From: Perna viridis
Taxonomy: Eukaryota
DNA length: 64,000 bases
Direction: 5' to 3'
Assembly: GCA_037379345.1 (NCBI GenBank)
Contig: CM074520.1
Location: 5,642,001-5,706,000 of the forward strand
Below, in pieces: positions 9,601-46,100 of this stretch; the stretch's first letter is position 1; every line of letters begins with the position of its first letter. The notes under the pieces are model-generated. The model saw nothing but the letters and a program-made list of their open reading frames with translations. It did no database searches and was not told the origin of the DNA. A program made the translations under genes and the position numbers.

Positions 9601-9837
9601 AGTTACACTTTCTTATTCAATCTGAAATTATAGAATTAAAACCAATTTCAATAAATAAAAAAAACAGGACATCTATCATGTTTCTGCAGTGGCTGATCGA
9701 GAAATTTCCAAAAGGGGGCAACTGACTGGCTAAATTTTTTTAGCATAAAAGGGGGCCTGGCCCACCTTTGATCTGCCTATGATCTGTAAGTAATGTTTTG
9801 GTAAGCGTTTTTGGATACACTGTGTAAACTTATGCAC

Positions 9838-21201: not shown

Positions 21202-22965
21202 TGACAACTACATGATTCAACAGTATTGAGTGAATGAATGAGTGAAAACCACATATGAAAGTGAAATACAGATGTAAACTCTGTGATGTTTTTATTAGTG
21301 ATGGTGTCATTTGATAATGTTGACTTGAATAAATTTGGTATAAACTAAAGCCAGTAGTTTATGTCCAACTTAAAATTCTAGTGCTTAAGTGCTTCGTAGG
21401 AAGATTTAAAAAGTTAGAAGGGTCTTACAACAGTGATTCAAAGATGCACCAAGTGGATTGGTCATATTTTAGTTTACTCATTTGTTTATTTTATATCACT
21501 ATCTCATTAAAATGTTTACATATTTCTTATCATGTGTGTGACCTGGTTCTGTTCAGTATCTTTATTGCAACAGAATGTATTTATCTTTTATATGTATTTT
21601 ATTAATTTAAACATGTATGGAAAAAGTCAAAATATGCCATTCTGCCAGGCAGATTAAAAATCTATTTCATTAAGTCTTTTATATGTGTCAGAGAAATACA
21701 GGTTTTCTGCAGCTTATTAAGAAAACAAATTCTGCATATGTGTTGAAGACTAAACCCTAGTCACCTATAACAGCCCTGGAATGAAATCTGTAACATATCC
21801 TTAATGATTGATGGCATATGATTGACAATGACATATTTAGGAAATGGATGAAATAGATCCATATCACATCCACTACACCCCCTCAACTCATACAAACCCT
21901 CAAGCAAACGTTCAGGCTGATATGGCTGTCTCTATGTCCAGAATGGATATGGTGAATATAATATACATAGATATGAAGTTTAGAAGTAAATGTTATGTAC
22001 CATTCAGTGAACTTATTATCTGTCATTATGATCTTTGTAACATTTACTGACTTTGTTTATTATGAAATATATAATAAGAATCTGTATTGTTGTTGTGTAG
22101 TGCTTTTTTTTTCAAAGTGTATTGATAATAATTTTGTGAGTACGGTAGGTAGTCTAAGATCTATTCAATTTAAGATACTGTAGATTATACAATTATTTTG
22201 AATTCTAAATACCAGTTTTTTAATAGTGTGTGGAATAATAGAAATTTCCTACAGAATCTGTACAAAATGTTTTAAACAAAGTGCCTTTATTAAAGTTCAA
22301 ATATCTCAAAATTAAGTTCTTGACCTTTGTTTTTTTATATTAGAATTTATTGGTATGTTAATTCAAGGTAAATTAGAAATATCTACATAAAAATATTATT
22401 AGGTATGATCTAACTGTTTAAAATAAATATACGTAGTTAAAACTTGGCAAAGACATTTGTGTGATAATTGCGCAGCTAGGTGGTATGTTAATCAATATTT
22501 CAGACCCCTAAATTTACGTGTAGTTAAGTAAAGAACCATGTAATAATCAGGCAGATCCTTTATAGTATTAGTTATAATGATGAAGAAAAAATGAGTTATT
22601 CTTCTTTGTGGACTGTATTCAATACATCTTAAGCCTAATATACATAGAAAGTTCTAAGTACCAAACATAAAATACAAACAATGGTTGAGGTGATACAAGC
22701 TGCAGGAAAAAACACAGAACAAATGATGCTTTCTACATTTACATATGCCATATTTTAATTTAACTACCTTTTTGGTCACAGAACTGTATTTTAGATATTT
22801 ACTAGATAAAAAATTTACTATCAAATTAATTTATAATAGTTTGATGCTCTGCACCTTGTTTAATAGAAATATCTGGAGAAGAAAAATATGCTAAACATTA
22901 TGCTTAAATGGTGAGAATTTGGTATTTCAGTAGGGGGTAAGGCTTATTTATTGTAGGTTCAAAAA

Positions 22966-24035: not shown

Positions 24036-24879
24036 ATTTGTTAATAAGCTGGCATACGCTTCTCAAATATAACTCATTGAACACTGAACGGTAGAAGCTA
24101 ACATAGTCTAATATATTTGTTTTGGTGACCAAACCTATCTTTTAAATTAAACTATTCATGAGAAGGATATACATGTATTAAAATGAGGATCCCCGATAAG
24201 CAAACGAACATACAGACTGACGAACGGGTAAGCAATGTCTAAAGAAACATGCTTTCTAGATAATTCTCGGGTGGTTGGAACCCTCTTTTATTGGAATATA
24301 TTTGTATGCATAACTATGACAAGAAATGAGCATCTATAAGTTTTGTGTATCCGCCCCTAATTTGTTCAACAACATGATGCATAATTTAGTAGTACAGTAT
24401 AGCTAATGAGTCAAGTTCTGTAAAATTACCAATTAACATAAGTTTTCATGGGTTTTTGCCTGAATTTGAATCAATCTTAAGTTTTAAAAAACACGAAAAC
24501 AGTTTCCGGCGTAGAGACGAACATAGATGGTAAAGAGAAATTGTATTCATAGGAACACTTTTTAAAAGTATCAAGATTTCAGATATGACGCTGAAATAAG
24601 TGTGAAGTTTCCATTTTCTTTATTTGTGAAATTTCATATATCTCGAGTTGATACAGCACAATATACTGTTCGTGTTACAATGGTTGAATCAGATCTTAAT
24701 CATTCCGAAGACAAGTCGATTATTCCTTTGGGTTAGTCTAAAATGTCAAGTGTTCTTTTTTGTGTGTCGATGATATACTGCTCCTGGGTAAAATTGTTTC
24801 TATGTTGTCGAATCCTTGGGGGATATTTATCTTCTTTACATCGTAATCATGTACTTAATATTTGGTTTTGTTTTTGCAG

Positions 24880-25992
24880 TTGAATTGGAACCATCCAGAG
24901 ATGACGGTGGACAAGGCACAGAAATCACTGCATCTATCCATTAGCTCACCCGACATCACAGCGTATTCTACGGCTAATCTGAACTTTTCCATGGAAATCA
25001 ACCCAGATAGTCTAACAAACGATACCGAAATTGGTGAACTGATTCAAAATATTGTTTTAAGCAGTGACGATAACATATCCGATTTCGATGACGCTATGTC
25101 AACAGATTCGGACAATGAAAATGTTCCCGAAATTGATTATCAAGAAGAACTTCTTTCGCGGTGGTATTACTACGCAAGCTTTGTGTACCAGAAAGATTTA
25201 TCGAACAGAGAGATCGATGGTTGTGAGAACCCCGACGCATCACAACTAGTTGGCGGAATTATTAACACAACAGAAACAGACTCCCCGAGGGACAGTGATA
25301 CTACATTTGCAATTGATGACACTTGTGACAAACCGAACCGCCCAAATTCAGAAAATAGCAGCATTGAACAACAAGTTACAGACGATTTGTTATCAAAGAC
25401 ACACTATCTGACGTTGGACTTTTCTGAACTTGTCAACGAGTCTTCCGTTTCCGAAATAAAAAACTTTGTTCCTAGAATGACAGATGACAATGAACCGTGT
25501 GTTGGAAATACAGAACACTGTGATCCGACACTGAATTCTGCAGATGTCAGTGCAGATCCTATTTTTTTATCTTGTGGAGATCGTACAATGTCAGTCATTG
25601 CATCCTCTTCTATATGTATGGATGAATTTAGTCTTGCAGATTCCGAACTAGATCCAAGTGAATTGATGCCTAATAAAAAGGTACACATTCTTCGACGAAC
25701 AACGACTTTATACAATCTTAACGCTACCAATCATCAGCCTATTACTAATTCATCAAAGACTTCAAATCGTTTGTTAAAAGCAATGAAATCTGTCAAACGA
25801 AGCCTGACTCCTACACGGAGGGTGAACAGTAGATTGTGTAACGATAACGATAGCGACGGACAAGAGCTTGCATCTCCATCTCAAGATATACAGTTACACG
25901 ATAGGCGTACTGTAGTAAGAAAACTCAGGAAGTTTAGGGACAGTTTCCGGCGTAAAGACAAACACCGAATACAGACTCTGGCTATGCTTTGA
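24880..25992 (+). CDS. Cluster gene A: uncharacterised acidic, disordered protein with conserved C-terminal helix and TLAxL end (terminal exon)
   Basis: 1.1-kb ORF after the acceptor tttttgcag (24879). Ends DRRTVVRKLRKFRDSFRRKDKHRIQTLAML. AATAAA at 26064. Possible in-phase upstream exons 24183-24227 and 24657-24731 (uncertain); otherwise start at ATG 24901. Confidence 0.85.
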   Translation: MNWNHPEMTVDKAQKSLHLSISSPDITAYSTANLNFSMEINPDSLTNDTEIGELIQNIVLSSDDNISDFDDAMSTDSDNENVPEIDYQEELLSRWYYYASFVYQKDLSNREIDGCENPDASQLVGGIINTTETDSPRDSDTTFAIDDTCDKPNRPNSENSSIEQQVTDDLLSKTHYLTLDFSELVNESSVSEIKNFVPRMTDDNEPCVGNTEHCDPTLNSADVSADPIFLSCGDRTMSVIASSSICMDEFSLADSELDPSELMPNKKVHILRRTTTLYNLNATNHQPITNSSKTSNRLLKAMKSVKRSLTPTRRVNSRLCNDNDSDGQELASPSQDIQLHDRRTVVRKLRKFRDSFRRKDKHRIQTLAML

Positions 25993-26876
25993 ACATAAAA
26001 AGATTTGTAATTTATTAAGAATTTGTTAGATGTAAAATTTCTCATTGTTCACTTAATAGTGCTAATAAATCTTGAACTATCAATTAGTCTTAGCTCATGT
26101 TTTCAGTCCTTTAAAAGTCAGTTAGCAATGCGTCGTCTGACTCCATGTATACATGTACACTAAGTAAAACCGAAAAAAAGATAATACGTGAATATGAACC
26201 GTTCAGTCAGATTCTGAAAGAAACACAGTATACAGATAACGAACGAACAAAACCTTCATTAACTGACGAATTGAAAAGAAGATGGGGTATAATTTTTGGC
26301 CTACAATTGCTATATTTTGAATAACCCAATACATATTAGAAAGACATCGCATCAATGTATGTTACCATATAAAACATGTTTAAACTATGTGTTTGTTTTT
26401 ATTATTACTATTTTTTTTGTTTTTTTGTTTTTGTTTTTTTGTTGTTTTTTTTTTGTTGTTTTTTGTTTTATTTGTTTTTTTTGGGGGGTCCTGTCCGTTG
26501 CCTTGTTATGCTGTGGATACGCATTTCGCCTGGTACAATTTCATACGGTGTAACAGTGATAAAACCAAAAACAACAATCGTACACTGTGGTTTTGCCAAT
26601 AGGTCAATTAGGACTACTTTTTGATGGGACACTGGGTCACAAAAAAATTTCACTGCGATTATAATACAATAGGTGGACTTAAAATTGAAGAATAGAATTA
26701 CGAAAACAAAAGGGGGTACAAGCATAGGTATATACTGTGATACAATACGAGAATATAATTATGTTATGGTGACAAATGCAGACGTAAATAAGAGAGGTGT
26801 AAAGGTACTCAAAAATCATGTTGGAAGTATGAGTTAGGATGCATGGGGAACGAATAGAAAGTTTTAAATTAATTCG

Positions 26877-27891
26877 ACTACCGGCCGCTGAATGGAACTC
26901 GATCAATCTGTGATCAAAATCAATTTTGTGTACATAAAATCAAATTCCGTCATAACAAAATCATTTTTGTCGTACAAAATTATGTTATACAGATTTGTTT
27001 ATGATCACTTCAATTTTGTGAGACAAAATTCAATTTTGTGCGACAAAAGTCTATTTTGTGTCACAAAATTCAACTTTGTCTATTTTGTGTCACAGAATCC
27101 TTTGGATATGCAAATGAATTCTCTCTCATTGCGATTTCTGTAAGGCGGCCTCTCATTGGATGTAGTAACCGCGGGTCTCGCAGGTTTCCGATTACTTCCA
27201 GCAAGGGAATATCATATGGTTGATGCACTTTTCTGCAAGAGTTATACTTTATTAGGTATTACTTACTTTTTGCAGAATAGCTTATCACCCATATGATATG
27301 TCCTTGCCCGAAGTAATCGCAAGACCAGTGGTTACTATATCCAATGAGAAATCTTCTTACAACATCGCGATGAGAGAGTTCATTTGCATATCCAAAGGAT
27401 TCTGTCAACTAATTTGCATACAAAATTGACTTTTGTGACACATAATTGAATTTTGTCTCACAAAATTGACACAAAAGTGAATTTTGTTTTTAATTGCACG
27501 CAAAAGGGATTTTGGTATGACAGATTTCAATTTTCTGAACGCAAAGTTGAATTTTGTGACAAAATTTAATTTAGTCATAATATTTCTCTGTTTTTTTATG
27601 CACATTAGTTCATGGAATCCAAACTAAACTAATTCCATACAAAATTGACTTATGTTACCCAATATTCAAATCAGGTAACAAAAGTAAAGTTTTTGATACA
27701 AAAATAAATTTTGACATGACAAAGGTAACTTTTGTCCACTGACAGATTTCTTCGTTTACAAAATTAAATTTTGTAGTATGTTATAAATTTTGTTAATCTC
27801 AACTCATTTTTTGTTGAACAAAATTCACTTTTGTCTGTACAAAATTGAATTTTGAGTACAAAACCACAAGAGTCCCATCCGGCGCCCCGTA
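26877..27891. mobile_element. Foldback/MITE with AT-rich subterminal repeats and internal inverted arms
   Basis: Diverged TIRs taccggccgctgaatggaactc / gagtcccatccggcgccccgta. Many acaaaatt.aattttgt units. Internal inverted repeat cagaatcctttggatatgcaaatgaa (about 27092) / ttcatttgcatatccaaaggattctg (about 27380). Confidence 0.75.
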
Positions 27892-27894
27892 TCG

Positions 27895-28900
27895 ATTCAA
27901 TTCAATTATTGAAACAAGAAAATTATGTAAACAGTCAACATTTTGTGTCTTCATAGACTTTAAAAAGGCTTATAATTGGGTTAATAGAAATTTATTTTTT
28001 ACCAAGTTGGATGAACTTGGATTAAGTTCAAAGATGATGAATGCTTTATATGCTATATAATATAAAGTTCAATCTCGTGTAAAATTGAATTGTAGTATGA
28101 GACTGGGTTAATGTGTTTTCAGGACTACAACAAGGATGTATTATATCACCCTTGCTGTTTAATATTTTTATTAATGATCTTGTAGATGAGATTAAAACCT
28201 TGAATGTTGGTGTTAGATTAGACGATGCTATTGTCTCTAATCTACTATACACAGACGACATAGTGCTTTTATGTGAAAATGATTTACATAGAATATTAGA
28301 TATTTTAAACCAATGGTGTCAACGTAATTATTTAATTGTCAATATAGCAAAGTCTAAAGTTGTTCATTTCAGACGACAATCAATGTCTAAAACAGGTTTT
28401 TTTTTTTAATGGCGATAAGATGGAATTGGATAAATATACATACCTTGGATTAGTTTTAAATGAATATTTGAATTATGAATATATGGCTAAAACTGTAGCT
28501 AAGTCTGCAAGTAGAGCATTGGGTTTATTGAGTATAAAGCACATGGTGGTTCTGACTATTCTATTTTTACAATACTTTTTGATACTATGCTGATGTCTGT
28601 CATTGAATATGGTGTCTCAATATGAGGCTGTGGCGAATTTTTTAAAAGTATTAATGCAGTTAAAAATAGAGCAACGTGTTTCTGTATGGGGGTTGGTAAA
28701 TATACCTCAAATCTTGCATTATATTGTGATATGGGCTGGAAGCTTTGCATAGTGAAACAATGGTCAAGTATTTCTATAATGTGGTTACGATTTATAAAAA
28801 ATGTGTAATGACAGATTGAATCAGAAAGTTTTTTTTTTTTCTGTGAGCCTACAGACATTGTATCAATCGAATTAAAAAAAAATTAACTTTAAGAGTCCAT
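27895..28900 (+). pseudogene. Degenerate non-LTR retrotransposon (CR1/L2-like) reverse transcriptase fragment
   Basis: Frameshifted RT motifs VFIDFKKAYNWV, GLQQGCIISPLLFNIFINDL, LLYTDDIVLL (YADD variant), YTYLGLVL. Confidence 0.92.
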
Positions 28901-30259
28901 AGTAAATTTAGAGAGTTGAATGTTAACCATTTTTATACTACTGACTTTATTGACTGATATATGTTCTTTTATGCAGCTTAAAATCTGCCATGAACCTGTA
29001 TTAAGTAGGAGAAATATTTTATACAAGTAAAATGAGTATCAGTGTTTTATGTTTTGTACCCTACTGTAATTTTATTTTAATGTACAGTCTATCATAACTC
29101 TTTGAAAAGAGTGGCTCTCAATACATGTAAATGAATGCACATGTTTTTATAGGCAATGATTTATATTATTAACTATAGTCATATTGTTTGAAGTTTTCTG
29201 AATTTTATGTTGTGTATCACTATTTTATATGTATATGTATGTATATATGAGAGGCGAGACTTAAATAATGAATAGTATGTCTGTCTGCATACATATAGTA
29301 ATTTGTTCACCCGACTTACCAACATTCTTCTCCAAAGCCAGGCGAGGTATCTCAAAAGATTGGTGTAGAAATTGATATCTTAGATGTTCTAACCATTAAT
29401 GGCTTAGTAACAAAAACGACAGTTAGGATCTGGTAGTTCCTGTGTCATTGCTTTATGCAACGTCTGTAAAATGTTAATGTTTTGGTTAATTTAATGAACT
29501 CAATTGCGCAGATTGTACCCAAACTCGACAGGAATGAACTACTACAAATCATCCATATTTTTTCGTGGGCTTGGCGGATTGAGATAACTACTACCATTAC
29601 ATTTTACCATTTTTGTTTTTTTTTATATATATAAAGTCAAACTTGACTATCATGGTTGTTCATTGTTGACATTTTCCCGTTCATTTCTCGTTATGACGAT
29701 GGAATCTCACAATTTCATGAACTGCGGATTTTGATAAATCTATATAAATATGAACCTTTTTAAAATGTCGCATGCAAAAGAAATGAAAGAACCCAATTCT
29801 GACAAAAAATGGGTTACAAATACTTTTCATCCATGTAAGCAACTGATTCTATATTATCATTCATAAAATTCAAGAAATCGTTACAGTCCCTATAGATACC
29901 AGAACATATTTCCACTGATTGTTGGTTTTCGCGTACATTCGCCGCATGCACATGTATACATTTTAAGACCTCCCGTGATATTTAGTCAATTCAACACCTT
30001 ACACAGAACATAAGTGATTTAGAAGCATACTAACAAGAATATTTAACAAACGAAGAAACTTTCGAAATGGCCCGTTCGATGACCCGTAGTGCGGGTGAAA
30101 TGTTCGAGCTTGTTGTTAAAAGTTTCTCCTAGCAACACATAAAAAGTAATTTGGTTACCATATTGAATATGTTTATTAGATAACACATAATAAATTAAAA
30201 GCACTAATTTATGTCAATAACCAAAAAAAAAGTAATAAATGTAAAATTACGTTAACAGT

Positions 30260-31983
30260 TCATAATGTTGCGAGTGTGTGAAGTCGTCGTAAGTCTTTTC
30301 GTCGGAAACTTTCCCGAAACCTGTGTAGTTTTCTTGCCACGGCTTGTTTGTCGTGAACCTGGAAACCTGATATTGCGCATTTCTTTGATGTGGGTCTTAC
30401 ACAGAACTCTTTGGGATGTTGTAAAGCATCGGAGTGGGCAATATCACTTTTAGTTTTTTTCTTCAGTCCTTGTTTCACGTCTTTAATCGCTTGAACGAGC
30501 TTAGGGAGCTTTGCTGAGTACTTTTCCTTTGCATGTGCCACTTTCTCCGTACACACAGGGAATATATCGTTTTCTTTGGTTTGCGCTATAGTCTGTAGAG
30601 CATCTGTTTCTATACCGACCACGTCTTGGCGAAATGTAGATGGCGCAATCGTAGACAAAAAGTCAACAGATAAACATCGGTTGTCGTCGTTCTGGTAACG
30701 CCGGAGATAATTCCTATGAAGAACAGTATCGCGATTTTCATCGATTGACCATGTTTCGGCTTCGGTCAAATTCGTTTTCCCCCTGGTACTTATTGACCAT
30801 TTTGAAAAATCAAGTTTGTCTTGCACCATTGTCGAAGAAGCACAAGGAATAAAATCATGTATCATTGTAGATTGAGCCCGTGGAGTTTTTACGTTCGTGC
30901 TAATGTCATCTGAGAGCATAGTTTCTCCTGAATAATCGATCATTGTAGAACTTGCCATTGGAGCCAATCTTAGTTTAGCAGGCGGCAATTTTTTCGAGCC
31001 ACTGAATAGCGATCGTCTAGCGTTTTGTCGTCTGAATGTGCCCCTGCAAAATTGAGCTCCACCTTTGGCTTTACTATCAAGACAATCTTCGGCTTCAGGT
31101 CTTCGTGTTAATATTATTTCTGTCGATTTGACCAAGTTATTGTCTTGCGTGAAATCAGTCCAATCATTCAGTGACGTGTTGACAAGGGTGTCTGACTCAT
31201 CAAAAGACATGCTCAAATTAGTGACTCTTGTGAGAGACTCAATTTTAGAGACGGATGATGGTGTCACTGGACAAGGACTATTCTTTGCCATCTGTAAAAG
31301 AAATACAAAAATGTATTAAAGAGTGTAAAAGTTTAAGACAAAGACACGTTACAGTAACGAGCTTCTACAACTTAACTGTTTATAGAACCATTTGATAAGT
31401 CCTATTTATGTCAACGTATCTTTTTAAAGGCTTAGGGTTTCTTTGGGGGGGATGGGGGGAGAGGGAGGTCTTTTTTTGTCGATCAGTATCAAAAGGACTG
31501 GCGTTTTTTGTTTTTTGTTTTTTTGTTTTTTTGTTTGTTTTTTTTTTTTTTTTTTTTGTCATTGTACAAAATCTTGACTAGAATATTATCTATCATATAT
31601 TTTTACTATCGTTATTGTATACTTACCACATTATAAAATAGTTGTGATCTTGGCCTCGATTTCAATGCCTTAGTAGAATTTTTCAGCGCTGGAAAAGAAT
31701 AAATTGTTATACCTTAAAAGCATATTGCAATTTTTTTTTAAATGTCTAACGTTTGAACAAAGAGCATGAAGAATATGGCTTGTGAAGTGAAACACGACAA
31801 CTAAATCTTGTACGACTAATAAAATAATACATTATCGGTTTTCAGGATGATTGAATAAAAAAATTCAGATATACGTTTGAATAAAAACAGATGTTTGAAC
31901 AGAAATTTACATATACGCAACGTGTAGTATAAGAGTAACTAGATCTAAGAAAACTTACCTTTTGGGCTGAATGAGAGCTTCAT
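30260..31983 (-). CDS. Cluster gene B: uncharacterised disordered protein, about 372 aa
   Basis: Exons 31983-31959 (MKLSFSPK, phase 1, GTAAGT), 31688-31627 (phase 0, GTAAGT), 31291-30260. Ends DKQAVARKLHRFRESFRRKDLRRLHTLATL. Three STM[IV] motifs. TATAAAAA at 32085-32078; AATAAA at about 30177-30172. Confidence 0.88.
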
Positions 31984-32077
31984 GGTATAAGTTGAAAGTT
32001 GTATTAAATTATTATGTCTTGAAAAAGAATTAGTCAAATTTGTAAAGTGTCATAGTTTTCCAGAAATATATACCCCC

Positions 32078-32345
32078 TTTTTATAGGTTTTAACACTTAC
32101 TAAGTTCGTATTACTCTAACACCTTTCGAAAATGCTTAATTAAGTACATTATAGTCAATAATTGGAGATGCTAGTTTTTACACCTGTTATAATGTACCTA
32201 CATATTTTGTTCCTGCAATTACACCTTAATTAATCTGTTAATTGATCGAAAAGAACCTCGTTACAGGAGTTAATTAGGACCTTAGATTTTGTATTGTTGG
32301 CATGGAGGATTTTTACACCTTTAATAAGTGAAATTTACACTCTCC
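32078..32345 (-). promoter_or_regulatory. Promoter of gene B: TATA box plus four T-box-type half-sites
   Basis: TATAAAAA, then AGGTGTTA (32117-32124) and AGGTGTAA (32178-32185, 32219-32226, 32313-32320), all on the sense strand, with TAATTA cores between them. Confidence 0.6.
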
Positions 32346-32969
32346 ATAAATTGCGTACAATATGAAAAATATTCCTTGAAGTAATTTTGTCACTTTTTAA
32401 AAAGATACACTGAACTAAATAGAGATGAAAGAAAACAAAAAAACACAGTTATGTCGGTCATTATCCGTAAAATACATAACAGGAGAACCAGAAAATAAAC
32501 AAATGTAGTAATAAACAAATAATCTACGAACAAAATATGAACAATCCAATGAATAAACAAAATAAACAGTGAATCGATATTTTAAGATCAAAATATAAAT
32601 GTTAATTATTTTCGCAGCATCCATATCCAATGCAAGAACATGAATTTGTCTTAATTACAGTATATTAGCAGAAATAAATATAACGAAGCTATAGAAATGC
32701 ACCCCACAACGATTAACAAGAAACACAATTGTAATGCATGCACAATTAGTATTTTGGTCTGCATCATTTTGAAATTAATCTCTAACAATTTGAATGCCAT
32801 TTATAACAACTTAACGTTTTTTTGTCTCAGTCTGTAGACCCAGTTACCGGCTAAACGTTTGCCGAAAACATAAAGCATCGGCCTAAAAATGCAACAATTT
32901 AATAATAAAATAGCATTTTTAATCGTTCTTTGAATGCAAGAAAACAATTGAGAGGTTTTAATTTTCGAT

Positions 32970-33660
32970 TCAATTCAATATTATTTTTTTTATTGGAAAG
33001 AGCACATAACAAGCGTCTCGTATTTTTTTCAAGGAATTTCGATTTAAGAAATCTGATAGTGATTCATCGGTAGTGTTATCAGGGATTTCATATCTATTTC
33101 GTAGAGAATTGTAATGAGGACAATTTAACAAGAAATGGTATTCGTCATACGTTCGATCCAAACTGAAATTTACAAAATCTTTCATTTCTTGAGTTTTAGG
33201 TTAAAAGAGCATGAAAAGCTCAAGCAGAACAATAGATCATTTTTCATTTGCAGAGACCGAATCGATTATCATTGGATACTTTTATAAACCTTTATGCCAA
33301 AAAAAAATTCATTATTTGAAAGTTTCTTTCAATTTATTAGGACTTTTAAGATATCAAGAATGTTATTTGTTACTTTTGCCTTCAAATGCAATTACTGTAA
33401 TAAGGAGTCGTCCTACAACTTGAAATTAAATGATGATTTCCGCAAGTCTTATCATAGGAATCATTTCATTAATTGAAAGTTTCTTTCTAACTGTTATGAT
33501 GCAAAAACTTTATTCGTCTTTAATGGGTAATAACTCGCACATGGAGTCGTTCTACAATTTCGACAAAGAGAACTTTATAGGCCTTGTCCCGAAGACAATT
33601 TCTTCTATTAAACGCTCTTTTCCATCTGTTATGGTTTTCAAGATAATGCCTGAATAAAAC
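32970..33660 (-). pseudogene. Degenerate LINE ORF2 3' fragment
   Basis: DEYHFLLNCPHYNSLRNRY is the typical C-terminal motif of CR1/L2-type ORF2. The upstream extent is uncertain. Confidence 0.65.
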
Positions 33661-33714
33661 GTCATTCCTTACCTTTCAATGCCAATAAAATGTACAGAAT
33701 ACAACTATCACTAT

Positions 33715-34095
33715 ATGATGGGAACAGAGTAAGGACTAACACACCGTGATGTGAAAAGAAAAGGACTAACGCACCATGATGGGAACATACATACACACCG
33801 TGATGGGAAAAGAAAAGGACTAACACACCATGATGGGCACAGAATAGAACTAACACACCATGAAGGGAACAACACCATAATTGAAACAGAATAGGACTAA
33901 CACACCATGATGGGAACAACACCATTATAGAAACAGAATAGGACTAGCACACCATGATGGGAACAGACTAACATAACATACCATGATAGGAACAGACTAA
34001 CACACCATGATGGTAACAGAAAATGACTAACACCCTATGGTGAGAACAGAATATGACTTACACACCATGATGGGAACAGGATATAGGACTAACAT
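33715..34095. repeat. Minisatellite, about 30 bp unit
   Basis: About 12 degenerate copies of aggactaacacaccatgatgggaacagaat. Confidence 0.9.
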
Positions 34096-35171
34096 TCCAA
34101 ATTTTAACAGCTGGGAAATGGAAAGATCTTTTATAAAAAATTGTATTAGGTCTAGGTAGAAATATGCCATTACTTCATGAAGACCTTAGACTGTAAGGTT
34201 GACATTTGTATTACAACAGTTAATAGTCTGGTACTAATCCATGAACAATTTACATTAATAGAAACTTTTGTTAATTTACTCGATCAAGATATGACAACCA
34301 TTTAAGTGAAGAAAACACGAAAGAATATGAAACAGAATAATCACAATAAGATATAATTTTAACGACTCTTTTTGCCTTTATAATTCTGTCCGAGTCTCGT
34401 TTTATAATACATCCTCAAGCTCTGCTACAATAATCTGTATAAGGTAAAATATAAAAGTTGTAAAATAACAGTCACATTTGAGATGGTAAATACACCTTGA
34501 ATTTATTTAAACGTCGGTAACAGAGATATTTCGCATGATGAAAAGGATAGACCAGAGGATAATTCGCTATCAAATTCAAATTTGTTGACGGCTATGCTAA
34601 TAAGAACTTTTGAAAAATTGGACGAAAATTAGTAAATCACGTAATAAAGCTTGTTTATTGGGTCGTAGCTGACAGATGCCAGCAATAAAAATCTGGATTT
34701 TTTTTTCAGTAGAAGTCAGGGGATGGATATGTTTTTCATTTTAGAAGAAAAACACATATTTATGTTCATAAAAAATGAGACCATTTCAGGTAGTTAGTGA
34801 ATCTATCCCTTTTTGAGGGACTTATCTAATGAATTTTGTTCACTTGCTCATTCCAGGCTTTCATCGATTTCTACACCAAGAAATTTTGGGGAATGGAATT
34901 TACAATACATTGATTTTTATTTTTGTATTTGAAGATCTGTTTTAAACATGAATTTAAACACTTAGGGTTTGTTTGTTTGTTTGTTTTTGTATTTATATAC
35001 ATACTTTGGGTTTCATACCGTGACTAAACAACACTTACATCATTTTGTAATTTAGTACATATGCTATTTATATCCTTGGTATGACAGTGTAAAGTAGAGT
35101 CGTAAGCATACAAGTCATGGGAAGATTTGGGTTTTATTTTACACATGATGGGGACTTTGTAGGGTTATACT

Positions 35172-35500
35172 GGTCTGGAGCTGGCATGTCAGTTAACTAC
35201 TATTAGTCCTCAGTTTGTACACTTGTGTAATTTGTATTCAGTTTCTTTATTTTTGTTGTAACAAGAGACTCAGACCTGTTTGAACTGATTTTCAGGTGTG
35301 TTTAATTGTATAATGTTTTTAAACAGTGCCCAGATTTTAAAGGGGGATGGTTGTGATCACGCCAAAGTACTTTAACCCTTCTTGCATTCTTTTTGCGACT
35401 GTCCCAAGTCAGGAATTTCTGGCCTTTATATGTCGTGTTTCATTTTCACCTTAAGTTTATTTATATTACTTGAGTATAAATGGACAAGTCTTTCGATGTG
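35172..35500. repeat. Interspersed repeat, same family as 22966-23415
   Basis: Shared colinear blocks with the 22966-23415 copy. Confidence 0.65.
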
Positions 35501-35504
35501 TCTT

Positions 35505-36583
35505 TAGCTGTGTATAATGATGTTTTGGGGCCTGTTCTTTCGTTGTAGCTGTGTATAATGATGTTTTGCGTGTATAATGCTGGTTTTGGGCCTGCTCTTT
35601 CGCTGTAGTTGTGTATAATGTTGTTTTGGGGCCTGGTCTTTCGCTGTAGCTGTGACGTTTTTGGGCCTGCTCTTTCGCTGTAGCTGTGACGTTTTTGGGC
35701 CTGCTCTTTCGCTGTAGCTGTGACGTTTTGGGGCCTGCTCTTTCGCTGTAGCTGTGTATAATGACGTTTTGGGGCCAGCTCTTTCGCTGTAGTTGTGTAT
35801 AATGTTGTTTTGGGCCTGCTCTTTCGCTGTAGCTGTGACGTTTCGGGGCCAGGTCTTTCGCTGTAGCTGTGTATAATGCTGGTTTTGGGCCTGCTCTTTC
35901 GCTGTAGCTGTGACGTTTTTGGGCCAGCTCTTTCGCTGTAGCTGTGACGTTTTGGGGCCAGGTCTTTCGCTGTAGCTGTGACGTTTTGGGGCCAGGTCTT
36001 TCGCTGTAGCTGTGTATAATGACGTTTTGGGGCCAGGTCTTTCGCTGTAGCTGTGACGTTTTGGGGCCAGGTCTTTCGCTGTAGCTGTGTATAATGATGT
36101 TTTGGGGCCTGCTCTTTCGCTGTAGCTGTGACGTTTTGGGGCCTGCTCTTTCGCTGTAGCTGTGACGTTTTGGGGCCAGGTCTTTCGCTGTAGTTGTGTA
36201 TAATGTTGTTTTGGGCCTGCTCTTTCGCTGTAGCTGTGACGTTTTGGGGCCAGGTCTTTCGCTGTAGCTGTGACGTTTTGGGGCCAGGTCTTTCGCTGTA
36301 GCTGTGTATAATGATGTTTTGGGGCCAGCTCTTTCGCTGTAGCTGTGACGTTTTGGGGCCAGCTCTTTCGCTGTAGCTGTGACGTTTTGGGGCCAGGTCT
36401 TTCGCTGTAGCTGTGTATAATGTTGTTTTGGGGCCAGGTCTTTCGCTGTAGCTGTGACGTTTTGGGGCCAGGTCTTTCGCTGTAGCTGTGACGTTTTGGG
36501 GCCTGCTCTTTCGCTGTAGCTGTGATGTTTTGGGGCCAGGTCTTTCGCTGTAGCTGTGTATAATGATGTTTTGGGGCCAGCTG
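35505..36583. repeat. Homogeneous minisatellite of interspersed 34-bp and 41-bp variants
   Basis: gttttggggccaggtctttcgctgtagctgtgac (34 bp) and a longer variant containing tataat (41 bp), about 29 units. Confidence 0.95.
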
Positions 36584-36917
36584 TTTTGATTTGTTGTTTA
36601 GTTGGTTGGCTGCCTGTTTTTTGCTTGTCATGGACAAAATCTGAATTAAATAAACAGTAACATCAATAACATGACGAGTACTTCAGCTTCGTAGTTCACG
36701 ATTAGAAGTTTAAGAGCTTTTCATGTGAAAGCATTGTAGATCTACGAAACGAATTGTTATATTGATTTGTCGTATAAGTACATGTATTGTACAAGTAGCC
36801 TTGTTGTGAAACTCTTGTTATTCGAGGAGAGAAAACACAAATTTGTTTTATATTATTTATTTACAGTGTTGTAAACATAAAATAGCACTATATTGTGAAG
36901 AGAATTTGTTACAATGG

Positions 36918-38342
36918 TCATAGATTCGCTAAAGTACAAATGTCAGCAGACTTGTTGCTCCAGCGCTCTTGAAAATATCGAATTTTCCTAATCATTTCCA
37001 CCTTTTCTAAACCTGACAAAGCCAGAAAGGGGTTGCTATTCTTTTTCTCTACTGTCCCCCCTTGTTTATTTTTCCTAGAAAACAAGCGCCTAAGTCTGGA
37101 AATTGGTTTAGAACGAGCATGCGTGGTCGTTTCTTTTCCGGGCTTTTTGTTGTTCAAGTTCAAACTGCCTTTCAACTTCTTCGGCGTAAGACGGAGCTTA
37201 GCTCTGGTGCTTGTTCTTGGGACTCCCTTGTGTGTATTGTAAAAAGATGTTTTTGCATACGCAACTTCGTCTACGACTTCTACACTGACAATGTCTCTGG
37301 TGCTACAGTAACCAATCGATGATAACATTCCAATTTCGTTCTGTGCAATTTCTTGCTTACTAGAGAGAATGTCTTCTTCGCATGAACTCGAGTCATCGTT
37401 GCGACTAATGACGAAAGTCTGGTTGATCTTGGGTCCTTGGAGTGAAGTACATGGAATGCTGTCATTTTGAATGGATGAAAAGCTTTCACTTATACCCGAA
37501 TCTTTTCTACTAAGAGTCATCATTATTTGGTTCTTGTTTTCACCAGGAGATTTTATCATGGTAGAGCATGCTACCGGTTTCGTAATATTTGACTTTCTTC
37601 GTTTGGAGTATCTACCTTGTCTGTTGCGGTTTCGACTTTTTGGAGTATGGTTTTCTTCACATCCTACAACTATACGCTCAAGGATATCTAGATCGATGCC
37701 ATCGAAATTAGTAAATGAATCATCAATATTTGAGTCAAAACTCGCACACTTATTAATTTGCTTGATTTCCGTTGGGTATCCAATCGGTACACAATGTGTC
37801 TCATCTCCAGATGACGAAGAACCAGAAATATTGTAGGAGTCTGAACAAATACTGTCGTTGTATAGGTTGAAGAAATCGTTTTGGCAGTCCTTCGCTTGTA
37901 ATATTGATAAGGATCCGAGTCTTGGAAGTTTCATTTTCTTTGAGGGCCTTTCTACGTCCAACTGATCACTCATCTGGAATTAAAAATAAATGTGATGGTT
38001 AACCGATAATTTATTATGAAACCAGTATATAAATTTATACTAATGAATCGTATAGATGATACATGGAATCAAGAAGTGTATATTAAATGTGCTATATAAA
38101 AATTTGAATTTAGAAATTCCCATATTTTTTTTAACTATATAACAAATGTAATGTTACTGATGGTACTATTATATTAGTATCACGAAACAATCTGGTTGTT
38201 ATCGAAACATTTTACATCTTTCAGCATTTTGCATAAAGACAAAGGATGCTGTTTGCGCAAATTAGAAGTATACAGAAGGTTTAACTGTATTCCATACCTG
38301 ATAAAGTACACGAACCACCTGGTCTGCTTTCACAATCTCCAT
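36918..38342 (-). CDS. Cluster gene C: uncharacterised disordered basic protein, about 366 aa
   Basis: Coding exons 38342-38298 (MEIVKADQVVRVLYQ, phase 0) and 37973-36918. Non-coding first exon ends at 38575; TATAAAAA at 38646-38639. Ends EKVEMIRKIRYFQERWSNKSADICTLANL. Contains PVACSTMI, FYNTHKGVPRTSTR and DSGISES. Confidence 0.86.
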
Positions 38343-39929
38343 TTCTGAAAGATATATCTAAAACGATAATATGAAAAAGAACGAAATTAAGAAATATTGC
38401 AAACCTTAAGATGTAAGATCGACTGCTTACAACCAATTTTAGTGAAACAATGACGTAAATCTGAAAAGAAAAAAAAAACATCGGCTGAACATCTAAGATA
38501 TCTTTACAATCAATCTTCAAAGAGCCTGGATTAACTTTTCCCGTTTTGGAATTAATTTCGAATAAATATTTTACCTTTAACCCAAAGTGCAGATCTTTAT
38601 CACAGTAAGATCACATATTTTAGCCGTGTTACATACGGTTTTTATACCTCCAGAGATCATCTTCACACCAAATACATATTGCCTCGAGATTCAGCCCTTT
38701 GTCTTATCGAAATTTAACACGTAATTATCAAAACAATTGGATTGCTATTCAAAACATTGTAAAATAATAATTGATTCTTCCGTTTTGTTTACTTTATGAG
38801 AAGTTCATTAAAAGATTCTGATTATTTTAATTACATCAATTACTTTTATTAATTATAATAATGTTATTCTATTTCTATATCACGTTTCATTTCCCACATT
38901 TTTTTCTAATGTGTTGTTGAATGTCACACCTACGTAATGCTAACAATTTTTCAACGTGTAAAAATGATTTTGTTTGTAATTTATTTTAAGACTAATAGTA
39001 TTTTCACTATCAGAAAATAATTTTGAAAATGAGAAGTCTGTGAACAACTATATAGAGTTATCTCTCCTTTCACGACATACTTTTGTTTACATTCCAGCTT
39101 GAAACAACCAAGTTTGGTCGCCTGAACTTGTATACCTTTTATTCAAACATTATATAAGTCTTTGTCTTCAGATTAAATGCATTCTTTTTCCATTAATTTA
39201 AACATGAAGAATCGTCTAAAAAAGCGCATTAAAACAGTCACAATTCGTGTTCCTATTCTATCAACAAAATTCTGTTAAATATTATGTCATTTCTGATTAT
39301 TCCTGCTATACACCGCAGTAGTTAAACCAAATCCGTAACTAAATCTAAAGCATAAAACCGAGAGACATAAGACAGAACAAAGGAAATGGAGACCACAGCA
39401 ACCAATAACAAGTAGAGACGGAATGAAAATTACTAATATTAAACTAAATCAAGTGTGTAAATTTTTGCATGTTTGTGAGAGACCGGAGTTCGTATTTCGG
39501 TTATGATAATGCTATTCTTTACATTTTCTGAAAAAAATAGAATAATGAAATAAAAGACTCATTACCACATAGCCTTTGGAGATGGTAATCATTTTCACCA
39601 TATCTTTGATTTATTTTTTTTTAAATGATAAAATTTTGCTAAAATTGTTAGTGAAAAAATAACATTTTTTTTTATTATAATCCTTTACTTGCTCCGTTCA
39701 CGATCAAGAAGCAATACATAACATATATTAGCGATCTGTTCACGATTATTCCTATGGCTTCACAGAGTGACGTTGTTGAAGAACCTGAGTCCGAGCTCAA
39801 TTTAGTCAAGTTGAAAATTGTTAATGTGAGAAACTTCAAGGTTGCATGACAATTTGTACAAATAATGCAATATCGAGACACAAATTGTATATGTTACAGT
39901 GCACTATATTCGTATCCATTTAGTGCAAT

Positions 39930-40730
39930 TCAATTGATGTTAAACATAAGACAAACGCCATGACTTCTGATTCCGTATTGTCAACTTTCCATTCATCTGC
40001 GTCAACATCTCTTTGGCACCTGCGAATCGGGTTCTCACGCGTTATGCCAGAGCTTTCGTAAACTACACGGTCTTTTTTGTACAGCGGTAGAGTTCTTACA
40101 ATTAAACTTTTGGAACAGGGTTGGTTGCTGCGCGATTAAAGTTATCATGTCAATTTTAAAAGTTTTATGGTCGTCATCATGAACTCATGGATTGTTATGG
40201 TGTATCCATCTGCACATCGTGTTTTGTTCACCGTGTCATACACAGTTTTTCTTTACTCTTTCCAAGTCTAAATAATAATAATAGTACTCGTACATCTTTT
40301 CTTGATTAAGATTTCGCACTAGAAATATGCAGTCTTCATATTAAAATTGATGACAAAATAGATGACTTTGATTTTCGTATTGTAAATTTTCCATTTCTAG
40401 ATAGTGATATCGCTGAAGCACATCTTACGGTATTTACATTTCACAGCTGGTCGGTTTCGCTCGTATTTGCAATAAAGTGTAAGGTTTCATGAACGCAATA
40501 AATTCTCATAGAAAAGCTCATGCATCAATACCACAAACTTCTAAAAACATTTTTTTCACCGTTACAAAATATTTATGCAAAAAGTATAACAGCACTAACA
40601 GGTTCTTAATTAAAAATGATGTTGCTCACCCAGTTCTTTACGGATATGTGGTGTCTTAAGCACATTCTTCCAAACAAAATCCGATGGATTTTTAACTGCC
40701 TTTAATAGATTTATTTGTTAAGGATATTTT
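39930..40730 (+). pseudogene. Two decayed fragments of a Penelope-like retroelement RT C-terminal region
   Basis: Translates with frameshifts as DKIDDFDFRIVNFPFLDSDI...SYGIYISQLVGFARIC (about 40350-40470). A second, more decayed copy lies at about 39945-40210. Confidence 0.65.
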
Positions 40731-43120
40731 CTATCTTTTTACCTTGTTTTCACAAAAAGGGATTTTCGCCCCCTAATTGCATCCCTACGAAAAAACTAAG
40801 CCATTTTTTAATATTGCACTAAATCTTGCCTAGTTATCATTTGACGTTAACCTGTAGTGACCAATTATTTCTAATGCTAGTCGGTTTAATGGTACATTGT
40901 ATTTGCATTCATTTATACGTTCTGAGCTACTTTTCAGGATCTGCGAGCATTCTTTAAGTGGATTCCTATTTTGTCTATATGGTTTAGGTTGAAGTATTTC
41001 ATGGAGATAATGAGAGAATTTTATGGTATTTTCGTTGTTTCAGTTCATTTTTTACATTACATTAATTTAAGCGCACCACAGACATGCAGTCAAGAGATGT
41101 TGGTCACTAATGTATCTTGGTGTCGTTATTTTACTCTTTAGTAATAAAAAGATTGAACTTACATTTTTGTCAGTTTTTTTTTTGACGATTACTGAGAATT
41201 ATATACCAACTGAAGTCAGTGCAACGGCCATGCTGCTTATTTCAGTTTGATTTCATTACTCGTATCAATGCATGTACCTTTGTTTCGAGAAAGGTCAGAG
41301 TTCAAGGTGCTAGTATTTGATACATTAGTGTACCTTAAACTATCATAGGAATCTGTATACTACATATTTAACCACAGTCTTGCCTTTTTAAATATTTAGT
41401 CTTAAAATATTGAATACAATCATAATTTTGTTGTTTGTTTTTACTACCTGCAATTGTCGTTTTTAGTTTTCTTTAAAAAAGAAACAACTCAAAACTCAGT
41501 AGAGATTTACCTCCATTCCATATTTTTTTAACAAAATTCCATGTCAAGCTAGCTGATTTTTCTATCTGGCAGATAAAAATGTTGTATTTCATCAACAAAC
41601 ATTACCATTGGGGCATACTTATTTTGTTACATACTACTATGCATAAAACAGTTGTTTCTTTTAACAATACATGTTGTAGATACTATTAAATAATTGGGAA
41701 GTCCAATTGTACCGTCAATTCAGTATCCGTTTTCCAAGTTATTGAGGAGAATTCAGTTTTGTTGACATTGCAGTGTTTTTGTTTTTGGTTTTTTATGGGG
41801 GGTAGGGGGGTGGTTAATGTCATTTTCGCAGTGTGCGATTATTTTCATGAGTAATATTTTTCTTATAAGAGCTTGTTTATATCCAACGATTTTCCGAGTT
41901 TTTCTTTATCAATTTAGATCGAAGACCAGAATTGATATAGCAGTCGCAGGAGCTTCCAGATTTATAAAGCCTAATAGCATCTCCTTCTTTATCAGAATAG
42001 TGCATTAACCATTAACAACAATAAACTTGTATTTAGATACATTTTGATTCGACCCCCGTACTTTCCTTTTTTTCTTTCATGCATTTTTTACAATTTTGAT
42101 GATTATTCGAGGCATAAAAATTCAAGCGATCGATATAAATTGATTCAGTACATGATTACTTGATTTAGGGTCATTTGTGTTCATCGATTTTCGACTTTTT
42201 AAAAGTTGGTTCTGTCCACTTGTATTCGACCTTTTTTATGGGTTTATTTTTGTCTATTAGTATTCGACCCTTTAAAAGGCTTTGTTTTTTTTTGTTTTTT
42301 TTTGTCCATTGGTTTTCGATGTCTATTTTTTTACGTTTGTTCTCGTTTTTTTTTTTCATCATTATTTTAAATATTGAGTAAACTGTGTTTCCCATGATAA
42401 AACTTTTCAATGACTTGTCAAGAAAGTCGGCTGTTTGGTTTTAGGACTTTGAATTTTTAGTTTGTAATGATTGCACAACCAACGAGTAGAAATCACTCGA
42501 ATGAAGAAATTCAATTTTAAATATTTTATTTACATAGCATAGCACTGATTCATAATTTGTCAATAAATTAATTATTTTACAATAATACTATACAAAACAG
42601 TACACATTATCTGCATAACCACAACAACAAAAACAAACAGGAAAGAAAGAAAGTGTGAAGAAGTGAAAAGACAGAAATGCCATCTTAACATATTGCCATA
42701 TTGCACTTTATCATAACATGAGGTCGCTTGTGTCCTATGTACATACATAAAAGCACTAAGAATTAATGACTATCTCATTGTCCCAACTCTCTACTTCTGC
42801 TATCTTACTCAATCTCTCAAATAAAATATTACAAAGAATGAAAACAAGCGACTTACTTTTAAAAAAGTACAATTTTCAATACACGTTATGAACTAAACTG
42901 ATAAAAATATTTTTTTCAATTATTCTTATATTAGCTTTAAAATACTCCTTTCTCAACGCCAAGCTCACACACTACAAACACTTACATCAAATTTCATGCA
43001 GTTTTTAACATTCATATATCTACCCGTAAAATTGTGTAAATACAAATAATTGTCTTTGTCAAATATCACATGTAAAGTTCGTGAACACATTTGTGGATAT
43101 ATTGTCACTAATTTAATGCA

Positions 43121-46100
43121 CTACAGGTTAGCAAGGGTGTGGATCTGTGTTGTGTCTTTCTGACGGAAGCTCTCGCTAAAACGACGCAACTTCTTGGCAA
43201 CAGCACGCTTGTCCATGAGGTGGACCTCGGGTGAAGGAGTCATAAACAGCTTCTTCTTGGTAACAGGTTCACTGTGAATAGATGATGGTCTACGCTGGGG
43301 TGTAGATGCAATGTTCTCGGTGCTCTTAGGCTTGCGGCGGAAACGGAACAACTTCCAGAGTGGTATGATGCCCTTGGGTTTCTTGAAGAGTTGGTTTTCT
43401 TTTGGTGATGTTGACCGGACTGATGAAGGCGGTGCTGGTGGCATACACTGGATCTCGGTCTCACTGACTGGGCTGGCCCTGGATGAGTAAGGTGAGTTGT
43501 TAGGAGCAAAAACACCAGTACTGCTGTAGCTGTGTGGACTGTCAGTGAGGAGGGAGTCAATCATGGCTTGAGTGTTGTGTGTCTCGTTACTGTTTGGTGG
43601 ACTGGTGTGACTACCACTAGAACTAGACTTGCCTGGGATGGCTGGACGATCATCTAGGGATGATGAGTGGGTACTAGCTGAAGAATTGGGAACACTCTGG
43701 ACATTGTCATTCTCTGAAGTCAGGACGCTGACCATGTCTGGCATTGATGCTCGGCGGGCTTCCATGGAACTACCACTGGACTTGTTACCATTCAGGTCAG
43801 TACGAGTGCTGGTACGTGGCAGGGTCTTTGCCTTGTTGTAGAAAGTGACTTCTTCGTACAGGCTGTCAGTGACAAGGTCTTGCTGCTGGGTGGCAGGTAC
43901 AATCATGGATAGGGTGTCATTGCAGGTAGTCTCGACTAGACTGGTACCACAGCTGGATGGAAGGACTTTCTTAGTAGGCAGAGGTGGCTTGCTGGAGATC
44001 CTGTTGATGTTGCGGTAGTAGGATTCTTCAAGTGGCAGCTCTTCAGAACCCTCTTTGATGGACCAGCAGTACACAGAATCCATGTCATCAGTAGAGGAGT
44101 GTGGTCTACAGGATGACGAAGTGGGATCTTCAATCATGGTAGAGGAAGCCCTAGGTATGGAACTGGTACGGTGCTTACTACTGCCACTGCTCTGTGATGA
44201 TGGAGAGAAGTCTTCTATCATGGTTGATGATGCCTGAGGGATGGAGATGCTGCGACGACTACCCTGTGATGAACTAGTACGGTTACGCTGAGCACGACTG
44301 ATGCGCTTTACCCTGTGATGGCGAGGTGATGGTGATGAGCAGTTGGAACTGGTAGAGCGAGTGCTAGAACGAGGTGGTGGTGCAAAACCAGGTGGGATGT
44401 ATTCGGACTCACAACCAATGACTTCTCTAGTGAAGAGCTCCTCAGTGTCAGCTGCAGTGTTGTTGTGGTAGATTACTGGTGTGTTGGTAAGGCGGGCTGT
44501 CATGTTGTTAATCTTGGTCTGACGGTCAACAGTGAAGTCACCATAGTAGTGGAGTCTGGAAAGCAGCTCTTCTTGACGGTCGTCTATGTCTGGTACACAC
44601 TGGTTGTCGTCTGAAGACTCTGACTCAGTAGACCTAGGGTAACCGCTGGAACCATTACTAGCATTGCTGATGTCAGAGGATGATGGCTCTGGTTGGTCGA
44701 TGTTTGGTACCAGGTTGGTTGGTGAGACTGGCTTTGGTGATGGTATGTAGTTACTGTTATTGTCGATGATCAGGGTCATAGCCGAGTCTTCGTAAATGCT
44801 CTCGCTGCTGAGTGAGTTGATGGAAACCAGAGGCCCCTGAAGCATCTTCTGCAGTAGGACATCTTCGTCACAGGAAGTGGTGTCTAGGCAGGTGATGGCT
44901 GGTGTGTTACGCTGGAGGAAGGAAGGAGTTGGTGGATTGTTAAGCTGCTGGTTGGTTGGGTACTCGCTTGGTTCCAACCCAATATCTGAGATGAGGGAGT
45001 TGAACTTCTGGTTTATCTCATCTATATCTGTCTGCAAGGCAGTCTCTTGTCGTTTAATGGCTAACTGTAAAATAAGATTAATATTGGATTAGATATAAAG
45101 AAACTTTAAAAGATCACATTCTTAATTTAAGTTCTGAATTTCTTTGAAATTCAGATCAATTTTGGTATACAGACATCTTACAAGCATTCAATTTGCTACT
45201 ACAAGTAAATATTAATGTAGATGAATATTCTTCATTCAGGTCAGTTAGTTTGTATTATAAAAAAATTTAAAAAATATTATTATAAGAAATGAAATACAAA
45301 TAAAATAACTATACATAAATTTGAAATACAAATACAACATGTATTCAATTATACTAAAAAATCACCATATTTTTATGTACATGTAGTTCACAACATTTTT
45401 TTGTATTTTAAACTCAATTTGGACATAATGCCCTGATCAATAGTGTAAGATGAACCTACTAAGTCATTCCTGTACAAGTTTATAAGGATTGATATTTTGT
45501 AATAGAACATTTTTATACCTAAAGTGAAGACCATACACTACTCTTCTGATATATCAAGAAGAAACATCAAAGAAATAAACTATTGAAGTTTCTGGTTCTA
45601 ACTATGGCAGGTAAGTAGAAAATTCAATTTTTGCCTCTGCTGAATAAAAGCTTTCAATAAGACTTCTACAGGCAAGATTCATGACCATCTTTAATATTTT
45701 TAAATCTTGGCTTTTATATCGAAGTAACACTTAAAACCAAACGTGTGTAATTCAGGTAAGATATGGCCATATGACCTTTATATACTTTTAAATAAAATGT
45801 CCATCAAATCTCATCTCTATAATACAAGGGATGAAACTCTTAATATATACCCAGGTTGCTTGGCAAGATAACTCCTTAGTTGTAAAGAGATAAAGGCAGT
45901 GTCTGAACCAGAAATTTCATTTAACAAAATGAAGTTAATTGACCTACCATATCAGCTTGAAGCATGAGGTACATCTCTTCATGATCAAGATGGTCTGAAA
46001 CATCGGAGTCCATACCAGTTTCCATCCAGTCTGAAAAACATAAGGGAGCATAACATAAGTCTAGAGTCACAATCAAACAAGTTGTACTAGATGTTACAAA

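Follow-up and report, generated by a model that had tools for sequence, protein, structure and literature searches.

Duplicated genes can part ways through uneven loss of short motifs, as described for the yeast pair Ace2/Swi5, in which one paralogue keeps constraint while the other loses regulatory motifs (PMC4256066). Disordered proteins carrying short docking motifs in series are also known. CENP-U/PBIP1 and M18BP1 have tandem docking regions for Polo-like kinase 1 (PLK1) in disordered sequence (PMC13161223), and the linker of Mst2 contains several T-M motifs that bind Mob1 as phosphothreonine-methionine (pT-M; PMC4511216). Here we analyze a gene family with features reminiscent of both kinds in a 64,000-nucleotide stretch of Perna viridis DNA (assembly GCA_037379345.1, contig CM074520.1, positions 5,642,001 to 5,706,000; hereafter the window). 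Four long reading frames are present in the region of interest, A (24859-25992, + strand), B (30260-31315, - strand), C (36918-37979, - strand) and D (43121-45088, - strand), and the ends of the region correspond to the splice acceptors of two large terminal exons, those of A and D.

Judged from their sequences, A to D are tandem paralogues, with A, B and C representing older, fast-diverged short forms. The four copies show lopsided divergence with D ancestor-like, and complementary motif loss is confined to the sister pair A and B. We consider this account of an ancestor-like D, lopsided divergence and complementary loss in one sister pair only to be very probable. Uneven motif loss after duplication is a process already known (PMC4256066). 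Unlike Ace2/Swi5, the mollusc protein consists entirely of a chain of motifs and has five short derivatives, and its short forms recur in oysters and pearl oyster.

Gene D is a long, ancestor-like member of a mollusc family

Of 7983 candidates scored against gene D, 41 proteins reached E<=0.01, spanning Mytilus edulis (82%), scallops, oysters, ark shell, clams, Solemya, Patella and Haliotis. A profile search of 1.84 billion representatives yielded 59 matches at E<=0.001. All matches and cluster members with a species name are bivalves or gastropods, with D orthologous to a long disordered protein found in these two groups. Searches of the same genome, in which only the best candidates were scored, identified two further short paralogues, E on contig C4 and F on contig C8, bringing the family to at least six genes. 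Short members are also found in Crassostrea gigas (398 and 183 amino acids) and Pinctada (378 amino acids). One Mytilus galloprovincialis model (P0051, 1035 amino acids) joins an E-type sequence to a telomere-length-regulation protein and is probably a merged gene prediction.

No Pfam match above the curated cut-off was obtained for the four window proteins and 13 related ones, and a search of Protein Data Bank sequences with a 47-row profile gave no match at E<=10. The best ESM Atlas score (0.83, to unnamed arthropod clusters) lies inside the range of shuffled proteins and is a lead only. An AlphaFold2 model of the M. edulis D orthologue has a pTM of 0.30, with 484 of 703 residues below a pLDDT of 50. 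Its ordered parts are an N-terminal helix (35-74), short middle helices and two C-terminal helices. Full-text searches for six family locus identifiers found no paper, with the supplements of other papers possibly holding expression data, and nothing was found joining Mytilus with Polo and disorder terms. The mollusc family and its motif patchwork are real, and the family is apparently undescribed; databases call it 'mucin-like' or 'serine-rich adhesin-like', though it is conserved from limpets to oysters.

To quantify motif content, 24 motif profiles were built from 33 long relatives outside the Mytilus-like group, anchored on their consensus, and used to score 24 proteins, each compared with 1000 of its shuffles (p<=0.02; chance alone should give about 11 matches in the 576 tests). 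D keeps 22 of the 24 motifs with no inversion among 231 motif pairs, as an earlier note made from the sequence alone had proposed in calling its set nearly full, and the M. edulis orthologue likewise keeps 22 of 24 in perfect order. The short copies keep far fewer (A 4, B 7, C 5, E 9 and F 3). Pooled, A, B and C hold 11 of 24, and nine D motifs occur in none of the five short copies; SSGIxAP, for example, is found in 0 of 22 short sequences. SLTRVTNL, kept in B and in clam long forms and degraded in D, is the sole profile motif that D lost but a short copy keeps. Motif order is conserved in A (0 of 6 pairs inverted) and C (0 of 10), and the order proposed in the earlier note for the four proteins is broken only in B, where a single RRSLF match accounts for 3 inversions in 21 pairs. 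Such out-of-order matches are probably chance matches.

All 19 peptides quoted in the earlier note are present in the four frames where it placed them. Each pairing was examined as the best local match against 2000 shuffles of the target sequence, and six of eight internal pairings beat the shuffles (p<=0.031): VPDID..GDF of D with A (p=0.0005), TREVIGCES of D with A (p=0.0005) and C (p=0.004), CWSIKE of D with B (p=0.031), DTLSMI..DLV of D with B (p=0.0005) and FYN..PRTSTR of D with C (p=0.0005). The pairing of DTLSMI with C (p=0.63) and A (p=0.94) was not recovered, the best local matches lying elsewhere. The corresponding SxIE profile scored in 0 of 24 sequences, D included, and the DTLSMI motif is upheld solely by the direct pairing of D with B and, in orthologues, as a derived motif of A and B. 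The pre-terminal helix pairs A with B (p=0.002), while the pairing of C with D is borderline (p=0.085). D does not carry the A/B helix, having no match to it (p=0.999); the same helix is also seen in F.

In a 41-row tree built on 350 of 1297 columns, each of the five short genes (A, B, C, E and F) joins Mytilus-type orthologues with a bootstrap of 100, and A and B are sisters (95/87). Identity to the Mytilus orthologues is 84% for D, 67% for E, 51% for F, 43% for A, 42% for C and 41% for B. The path to the Mytilus orthologue amounts to 0.17 changes per column for D versus about 1.6-1.9 for A, B and C. This slow change of D, together with the finding that all named gastropod and heteroconch relatives are long and D-type and none resembles the short forms, upholds the view that D is closest to the ancestor. 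Approximately unbiased tests rejected neither a grouping of all mytilid short forms (p=0.296) nor one of mytilid D plus all mytilid short forms (p=0.189), and the short forms are therefore not dated relative to the mussel-oyster split. Contigs of equal length suggest that B and C are linked in M. coruscus, and A and D in M. edulis, too.

Complementary loss is restricted to the sister pair A and B

The earlier note explained the patchwork by subfunctionalization, the short copies having lost different motifs. Classical subfunctionalization, in which the copies split the ancestral set and all become necessary, finds its best case in A and B. The A lineage has SRYY and REVEG in 3 of 3 members and lacks an intact repeat and TWSI, the B lineage has the repeat and TWSI in 3 of 3 members and lacks SRYY and REVEG, and every short lineage is still present in Mytilus. 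Reciprocal loss between A and B thus stands as a pattern. The four genes do not show the loss in every copy and the joint restoration of the ancestral set that complementary degeneration would leave; the complementary pattern is seen in the A/B pair alone. As D retains 22 of 24 motifs, loss of protein motifs does not render the short copies necessary, and nine motifs are missing from every one of the five. The short lineages also gained motifs of their own: RKDSGI[SC]ES in the C lineage, a derived ST[IL]CR[DE]EFSL-type motif shared by A and B, and the basic helix of A/B and F. We therefore regard subfunctionalization of the whole set as unlikely.

Still less probable, in our judgment, is that the short copies are decaying under relaxed selection with little function, the patchwork being random erosion. 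Such decay would fit the low identity of A, B and C to their Mytilus orthologues (41-43%, where D has 84%), as well as the near absence of reads on the A and B exons in three RNA runs (19-25% of each raw run, tissue unspecified). Window A and window B also each lack motifs that their orthologues keep; LPRTST, for instance, is kept in Mytilus B and lost in window B, evidence that motifs were still being lost well after the duplication. Frames of 340-370 codons have nevertheless stayed open through about 1.6-1.9 changes per column, the same motifs are kept within each lineage (mostly 3 of 3), and a 3' heptamer is kept in all six genes. The six paralogues of one genome represent a natural deletion series of short linear motifs, and ties between motifs and partners can consequently be found by comparing copies.

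Organization of the genes

The features of the six family genes are as follows.
24880..25992, + strand: terminal coding exon of gene A; acceptor AG ends at 24879, first in-frame ATG at 24901. Contains QEELLSRWYYYASF, REIDGCE, the A/B-type basic helix, the terminal helix and IQTLAML; lacks the PxAxSTM repeat.
26057..26069, + strand: putative 3' untranslated region (UTR) of gene A, TAGTGCT followed by AATAAA.
30200..30206, - strand: TAGTGCT in the putative 3' UTR of gene B.
30260..31291, - strand: terminal coding exon of gene B; SLTRVTNL, three PxAxSTM repeats, TWSI, LHRNYLR and the terminal helix kept; SRYY, REVEG and LPRTST lost; RRSLF (RxL type) present.
30821..30961, - strand: the three PxAxSTM repeats of gene B, spaced by 26 and 12 amino acids.
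31627..31983, - strand: two predicted short upstream coding exons of gene B (31983-31959 and about 31688-31627), with GT/AG ends and in phase.
36884..36890, - strand: TAGTGCT in the putative 3' UTR of gene C.
36918..37973, - strand: terminal coding exon of gene C; RIVVGCE, one PVACSTM, FYN..PRTSTR, the terminal helix and TLANL kept.
37482..37508, - strand: RKDSGISES of gene C, found in 3 of 3 proteins of the C lineage and not in D.
38298..38342, - strand: predicted first coding exon of gene C, similar to the N-terminus of the M. coruscus orthologue.
42541..42758, - strand: putative 3' UTR words of gene D, TAGTGCT at 42752-42758, CAGTGCT at 42541-42547 and GTGCAAT in between.
43121..45064, - strand: terminal coding exon of gene D, 647 codons; long conserved form with 22 of 24 family motifs in order.
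43124..43306, - strand: C-terminal STP, KKLF (RxL type), basic helix and terminal TLANL of gene D.
43496..43771, - strand: long-form block of gene D with RRASMPD, RPAIPGKSSS, DSLLTDSP and STGVFAPNN, present in 0 of 5 short copies of the genome.
44129..44239, - strand: two PxASSTMIED repeats of gene D, 28 amino acids apart; predicted Polo-box docking sites.
45948..46031, - strand: upstream coding exon of gene D, start of the long N-terminal helix.
L004:1492-2661 (genome G000, contig C4): gene E; N-terminal helix and compact motif set.
L011:1402-2322 (genome G000, contig C8): gene F; ends before the terminal helix, which its Mytilus-type orthologues likewise lack.

For B, C and D, upstream coding exons bounded by GT/AG are readable from the sequence; they are similar to the N-termini of Mytilus proteins, the predicted N-terminus of B resembling that of Mytilus B.

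A conserved repeat suggests phospho-dependent docking

The most widely kept motif of the family, PxAxST[ML], was absent from the list of the earlier note and is found in 19 of 22 short sequences. In the form P-x-A-[S/N/C/Q]-S-T-[M/L/I/V] it occurs twice in D, E and F, three times in B and once in C; A has none, and clams have as many as four. When positions -2 and -1 relative to the Thr are left free, Ser occupies -1 in 81 of 81 matches from 46 proteins, and when this Ser is fixed, Thr occupies position 0 in 81 of 81. Residue -2 is Ser in 64 matches, Asn in 8, Cys in 7 and Gln in 2. In aligned rows the Ser at -1 is found in 47 of 47 last repeats and 43 of 47 first repeats, and position +1 is hydrophobic, mostly Met. 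An earlier count of 92 matches, in which the Ser at -1 was fixed by construction, has Met at +1 in 69.

Further short words are enriched. S-T-P is observed 47 times in 25 long forms against 20.1 +- 4.4 expected (2.3x) and is carried by 24 of the 25, while the control words are flat (TSP 21 vs 21.3, SSP 57 vs 52.9). RxLxF occurs 30 times against 8.4 expected, in 21 of the 25 long forms, and DSGxxS 6 times against 0.6 in 24 short forms. The word TM is likewise enriched (55 vs 30.1 and 41 vs 17.5). We take these motifs to be of the RxL, DSG degron and 14-3-3 site types, and RKDSGISES to be a DSG-type phosphodegron-like motif. Repeats are spaced by 25-32 amino acids in 33 of 42 cases, and S-T-P lies about 280 amino acids away in D. 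This repeat spacing is no tighter than others in the family and was discarded as proof of bivalent binding.

The Polo-box requires S-pT-X and prefers pT, and self-priming by the kinase is favored by D, N, E or Q at -2 and no Pro at +1 (PMC13161223). The invariant Ser at -1 and Thr at 0 match S-pT-X. Tandem motifs of CENP-U dock two Polo-boxes (PMC13161223), and T207 of BRCA2 is a docking site with Ser at -2 (PMC7156385). The genome contains two Polo-box loci. This disordered mollusc family may thus act as a phospho-dependent scaffold for PLK1 in dividing eggs or embryos, a reading that we hold tentatively and rate as somewhat short of evenly balanced. The Thr of the repeat would be phosphorylated and bind the Polo-box, with Polo itself as the candidate kinase where -2 is Asn or Gln (10 of 81). 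A cyclin-CDK docked via RxL could prime the conserved S-T-P, comparable to relay priming on CENP-U, and anchoring of the scaffold would fall to the basic C-terminal helix. As reduced modules, the short copies would share the 3' UTR control, B having Polo sites, A none and C one site plus a degron-like motif. If true, the family would be a candidate lineage-specific cell-cycle scaffold in spiral-cleaving embryos.

The likeness to CENP-U/PBIP1 and M18BP1 extends to the disordered region with neighboring S-T-X motifs, some of them without a following Pro, the S-T-P site and the helical end region (PMC13161223). Unlike those proteins, with which we found no sequence homology, the mollusc proteins have repeats that are near-identical, 2-4 per protein and mostly 25-32 amino acids apart, compared with 20 in CENP-U (PMC13161223). 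As for expression, published data on the oyster list the short family member LOC105343634 among the markers of group 10 of the cleavage/blastula cells (46% of cells, q=5e-22; PMC12551290 supplement).

Several observations weigh against PLK1 docking. Residue -2 is mostly Ser and not D/N/E/Q, -3 is Ala versus the Leu preferred by Polo, and Met at +1 suits Mob1 pT-M docking equally. Long forms show no enrichment of the general Polo substrate consensus (182 vs 202). S-T words arise readily in Ser/Thr-rich proteins and the proteins counted share ancestry, so that shuffle counts overstate significance. The 25-32 amino acid spacing may reflect internal duplication only. A, B and C have no S-T-P and A has no repeat, hence A cannot use the Polo mechanism. 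In the three RNA runs the A exon has zero depth and the B exon a depth of at most 0.13, in one bin. LOC105343634 groups with no window gene in the tree, being a family member and not a shown orthologue, and its co-markers bmp2, wnt4, delta and neuroD are signaling and neural genes, not mitotic ones (PMC12551290).

The repeats could alternatively be pT-M docking sites for Mob1 or a reader with an FHA domain, downstream of a Hippo/Ste20-type kinase, making the family a signaling and not a Polo scaffold. We judge this distinctly unlikely. It would account for the Met at +1 and the enrichment of TM, several pT-M motifs are redundant in the disordered Mst2 linker (PMC4511216), and the cell group of the oyster member is rich in bmp2, wnt4 and delta transcripts (PMC12551290). 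It leaves unexplained the invariant Ser at -1, the tolerance of L/V/I/F/A at +1 and the enrichment of S-T-P and RxL. Unlike Mst2, the mollusc proteins have no kinase domain and place a fixed P-x-A-x-S before the Thr (PMC4511216).

Bearded proteins have a basic helix and an NxxN motif. That the mollusc genes encode Bearded-like small regulators of the Notch pathway is highly improbable: the layout is similar, with tandem small paralogues from a single ancestor that share 7-nucleotide 3' UTR words, in Drosophila miRNA boxes (PMC3261227), basic helix and motif patchwork, and the oyster member is co-expressed with delta and neuroD (PMC12551290), but the 17 proteins searched have no Pfam match and no homology to Bearded was found, the mollusc proteins are larger, NxxN reaches only 1.2-1.3x expectation with no conserved position, and the heptamer common to the UTRs differs from the Brd, GY and K boxes, the K box being found, by reading, only in D and one clam-type UTR.

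A heptamer is shared by the putative 3' UTRs

TAGTGCT, which the earlier note missed, is located behind the stop codon and before AATAAA in 6 of 6 family genes of the genome, at 27-65 nucleotides from the stop in the five short genes and at 363 in D. At least two clam-type orthologue loci were identified on metagenome contigs among 599 candidate stretches, and both carry the word, 89 and 109 nucleotides after the stop. TAGTGCT is therefore present in 8 of 8 putative 3' UTRs, whose ends we set at AATAAA (the second such signal in one clam-type locus, L030). A 7-mer common to all eight was seen in 0 of 20000 length-matched random sets, and TAGTGCT occurs 11 times in 128 kb, both window strands counted. 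An unrelated gene next to A likewise contains TAGTGCT past its stop codon, with copies at 21379 and 22098, and the genomic background may for this reason understate the frequency of the word in UTRs. At 21379, in the 3' region of this gene, AAGTGCT directly follows TAGTGCT. A contig of X1, a run only guessed to be RNA, spans 25657-26083 at the end of A and stops 14 nucleotides past AATAAA.

CAGTGCT and GTGCAAT are also common to the three long-form UTRs, those of D and the two clam-type loci. In the latter (L029, L030), CAGTATTA and GTGCAAT are shared about 20-55 nucleotides after the stop; we take them to resemble miR-8/200 and miR-92 sites. Downstream of TAGTGCT, several window UTRs contain Pumilio-type and CPE-like words. 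As a reader of TAGTGCT, miR-29 was rejected, both mir-29 hairpins of the genome carrying AGCACCA (site TGGTGCT), one mismatch away; these hairpins lie about 3.6 kb apart (L027 and L028, contig C1 of G000). A genome count of the complementary 8-mer gave no candidate miRNA. Literature searches for the UTR word listed only unrelated papers, and those joining the seed word with bivalve miRNA found nothing.

Taken to its widest form, the preferred reading would have molluscs own an undescribed Polo-docking scaffold family for eggs and early cleavage, in which one long master gene keeps spawning short paralogues with different docking modules (Polo sites, none, or a degron) under one UAGUGCU 3' UTR regulon, from mussels to clams, read by a miRNA or RNA-binding protein. 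This combined proposal, built on sequence comparison, is speculative and we consider it doubtful as a whole. TAGTGCT is a directly testable cis-element whatever the function of the proteins.

Neighboring features of the window

A multi-exon gene lies just upstream of A (about 15200-21203, + strand); two of its single exons have no Pfam match, and its exon peptides presumably resemble mitochondrial ribosomal protein L28. Exon-like frames of a further gene are found at 277-621 and 9391-9612 (- strand), again with no Pfam match for single frames. Between A and B, 28101-28409 (+ strand) encodes a reverse-transcriptase fragment (RVT_1, E=4.7e-15), likely a LINE-type remnant. The interval between B and C contains a degenerate 30-bp tandem array of about 13 copies at 33715-34094. 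A second, GC-richer array at 35510-36558 has a 34-bp unit in about 26 copies with a 109-bp higher-order period, and leaves three probably non-coding - strand frames open just downstream of C.

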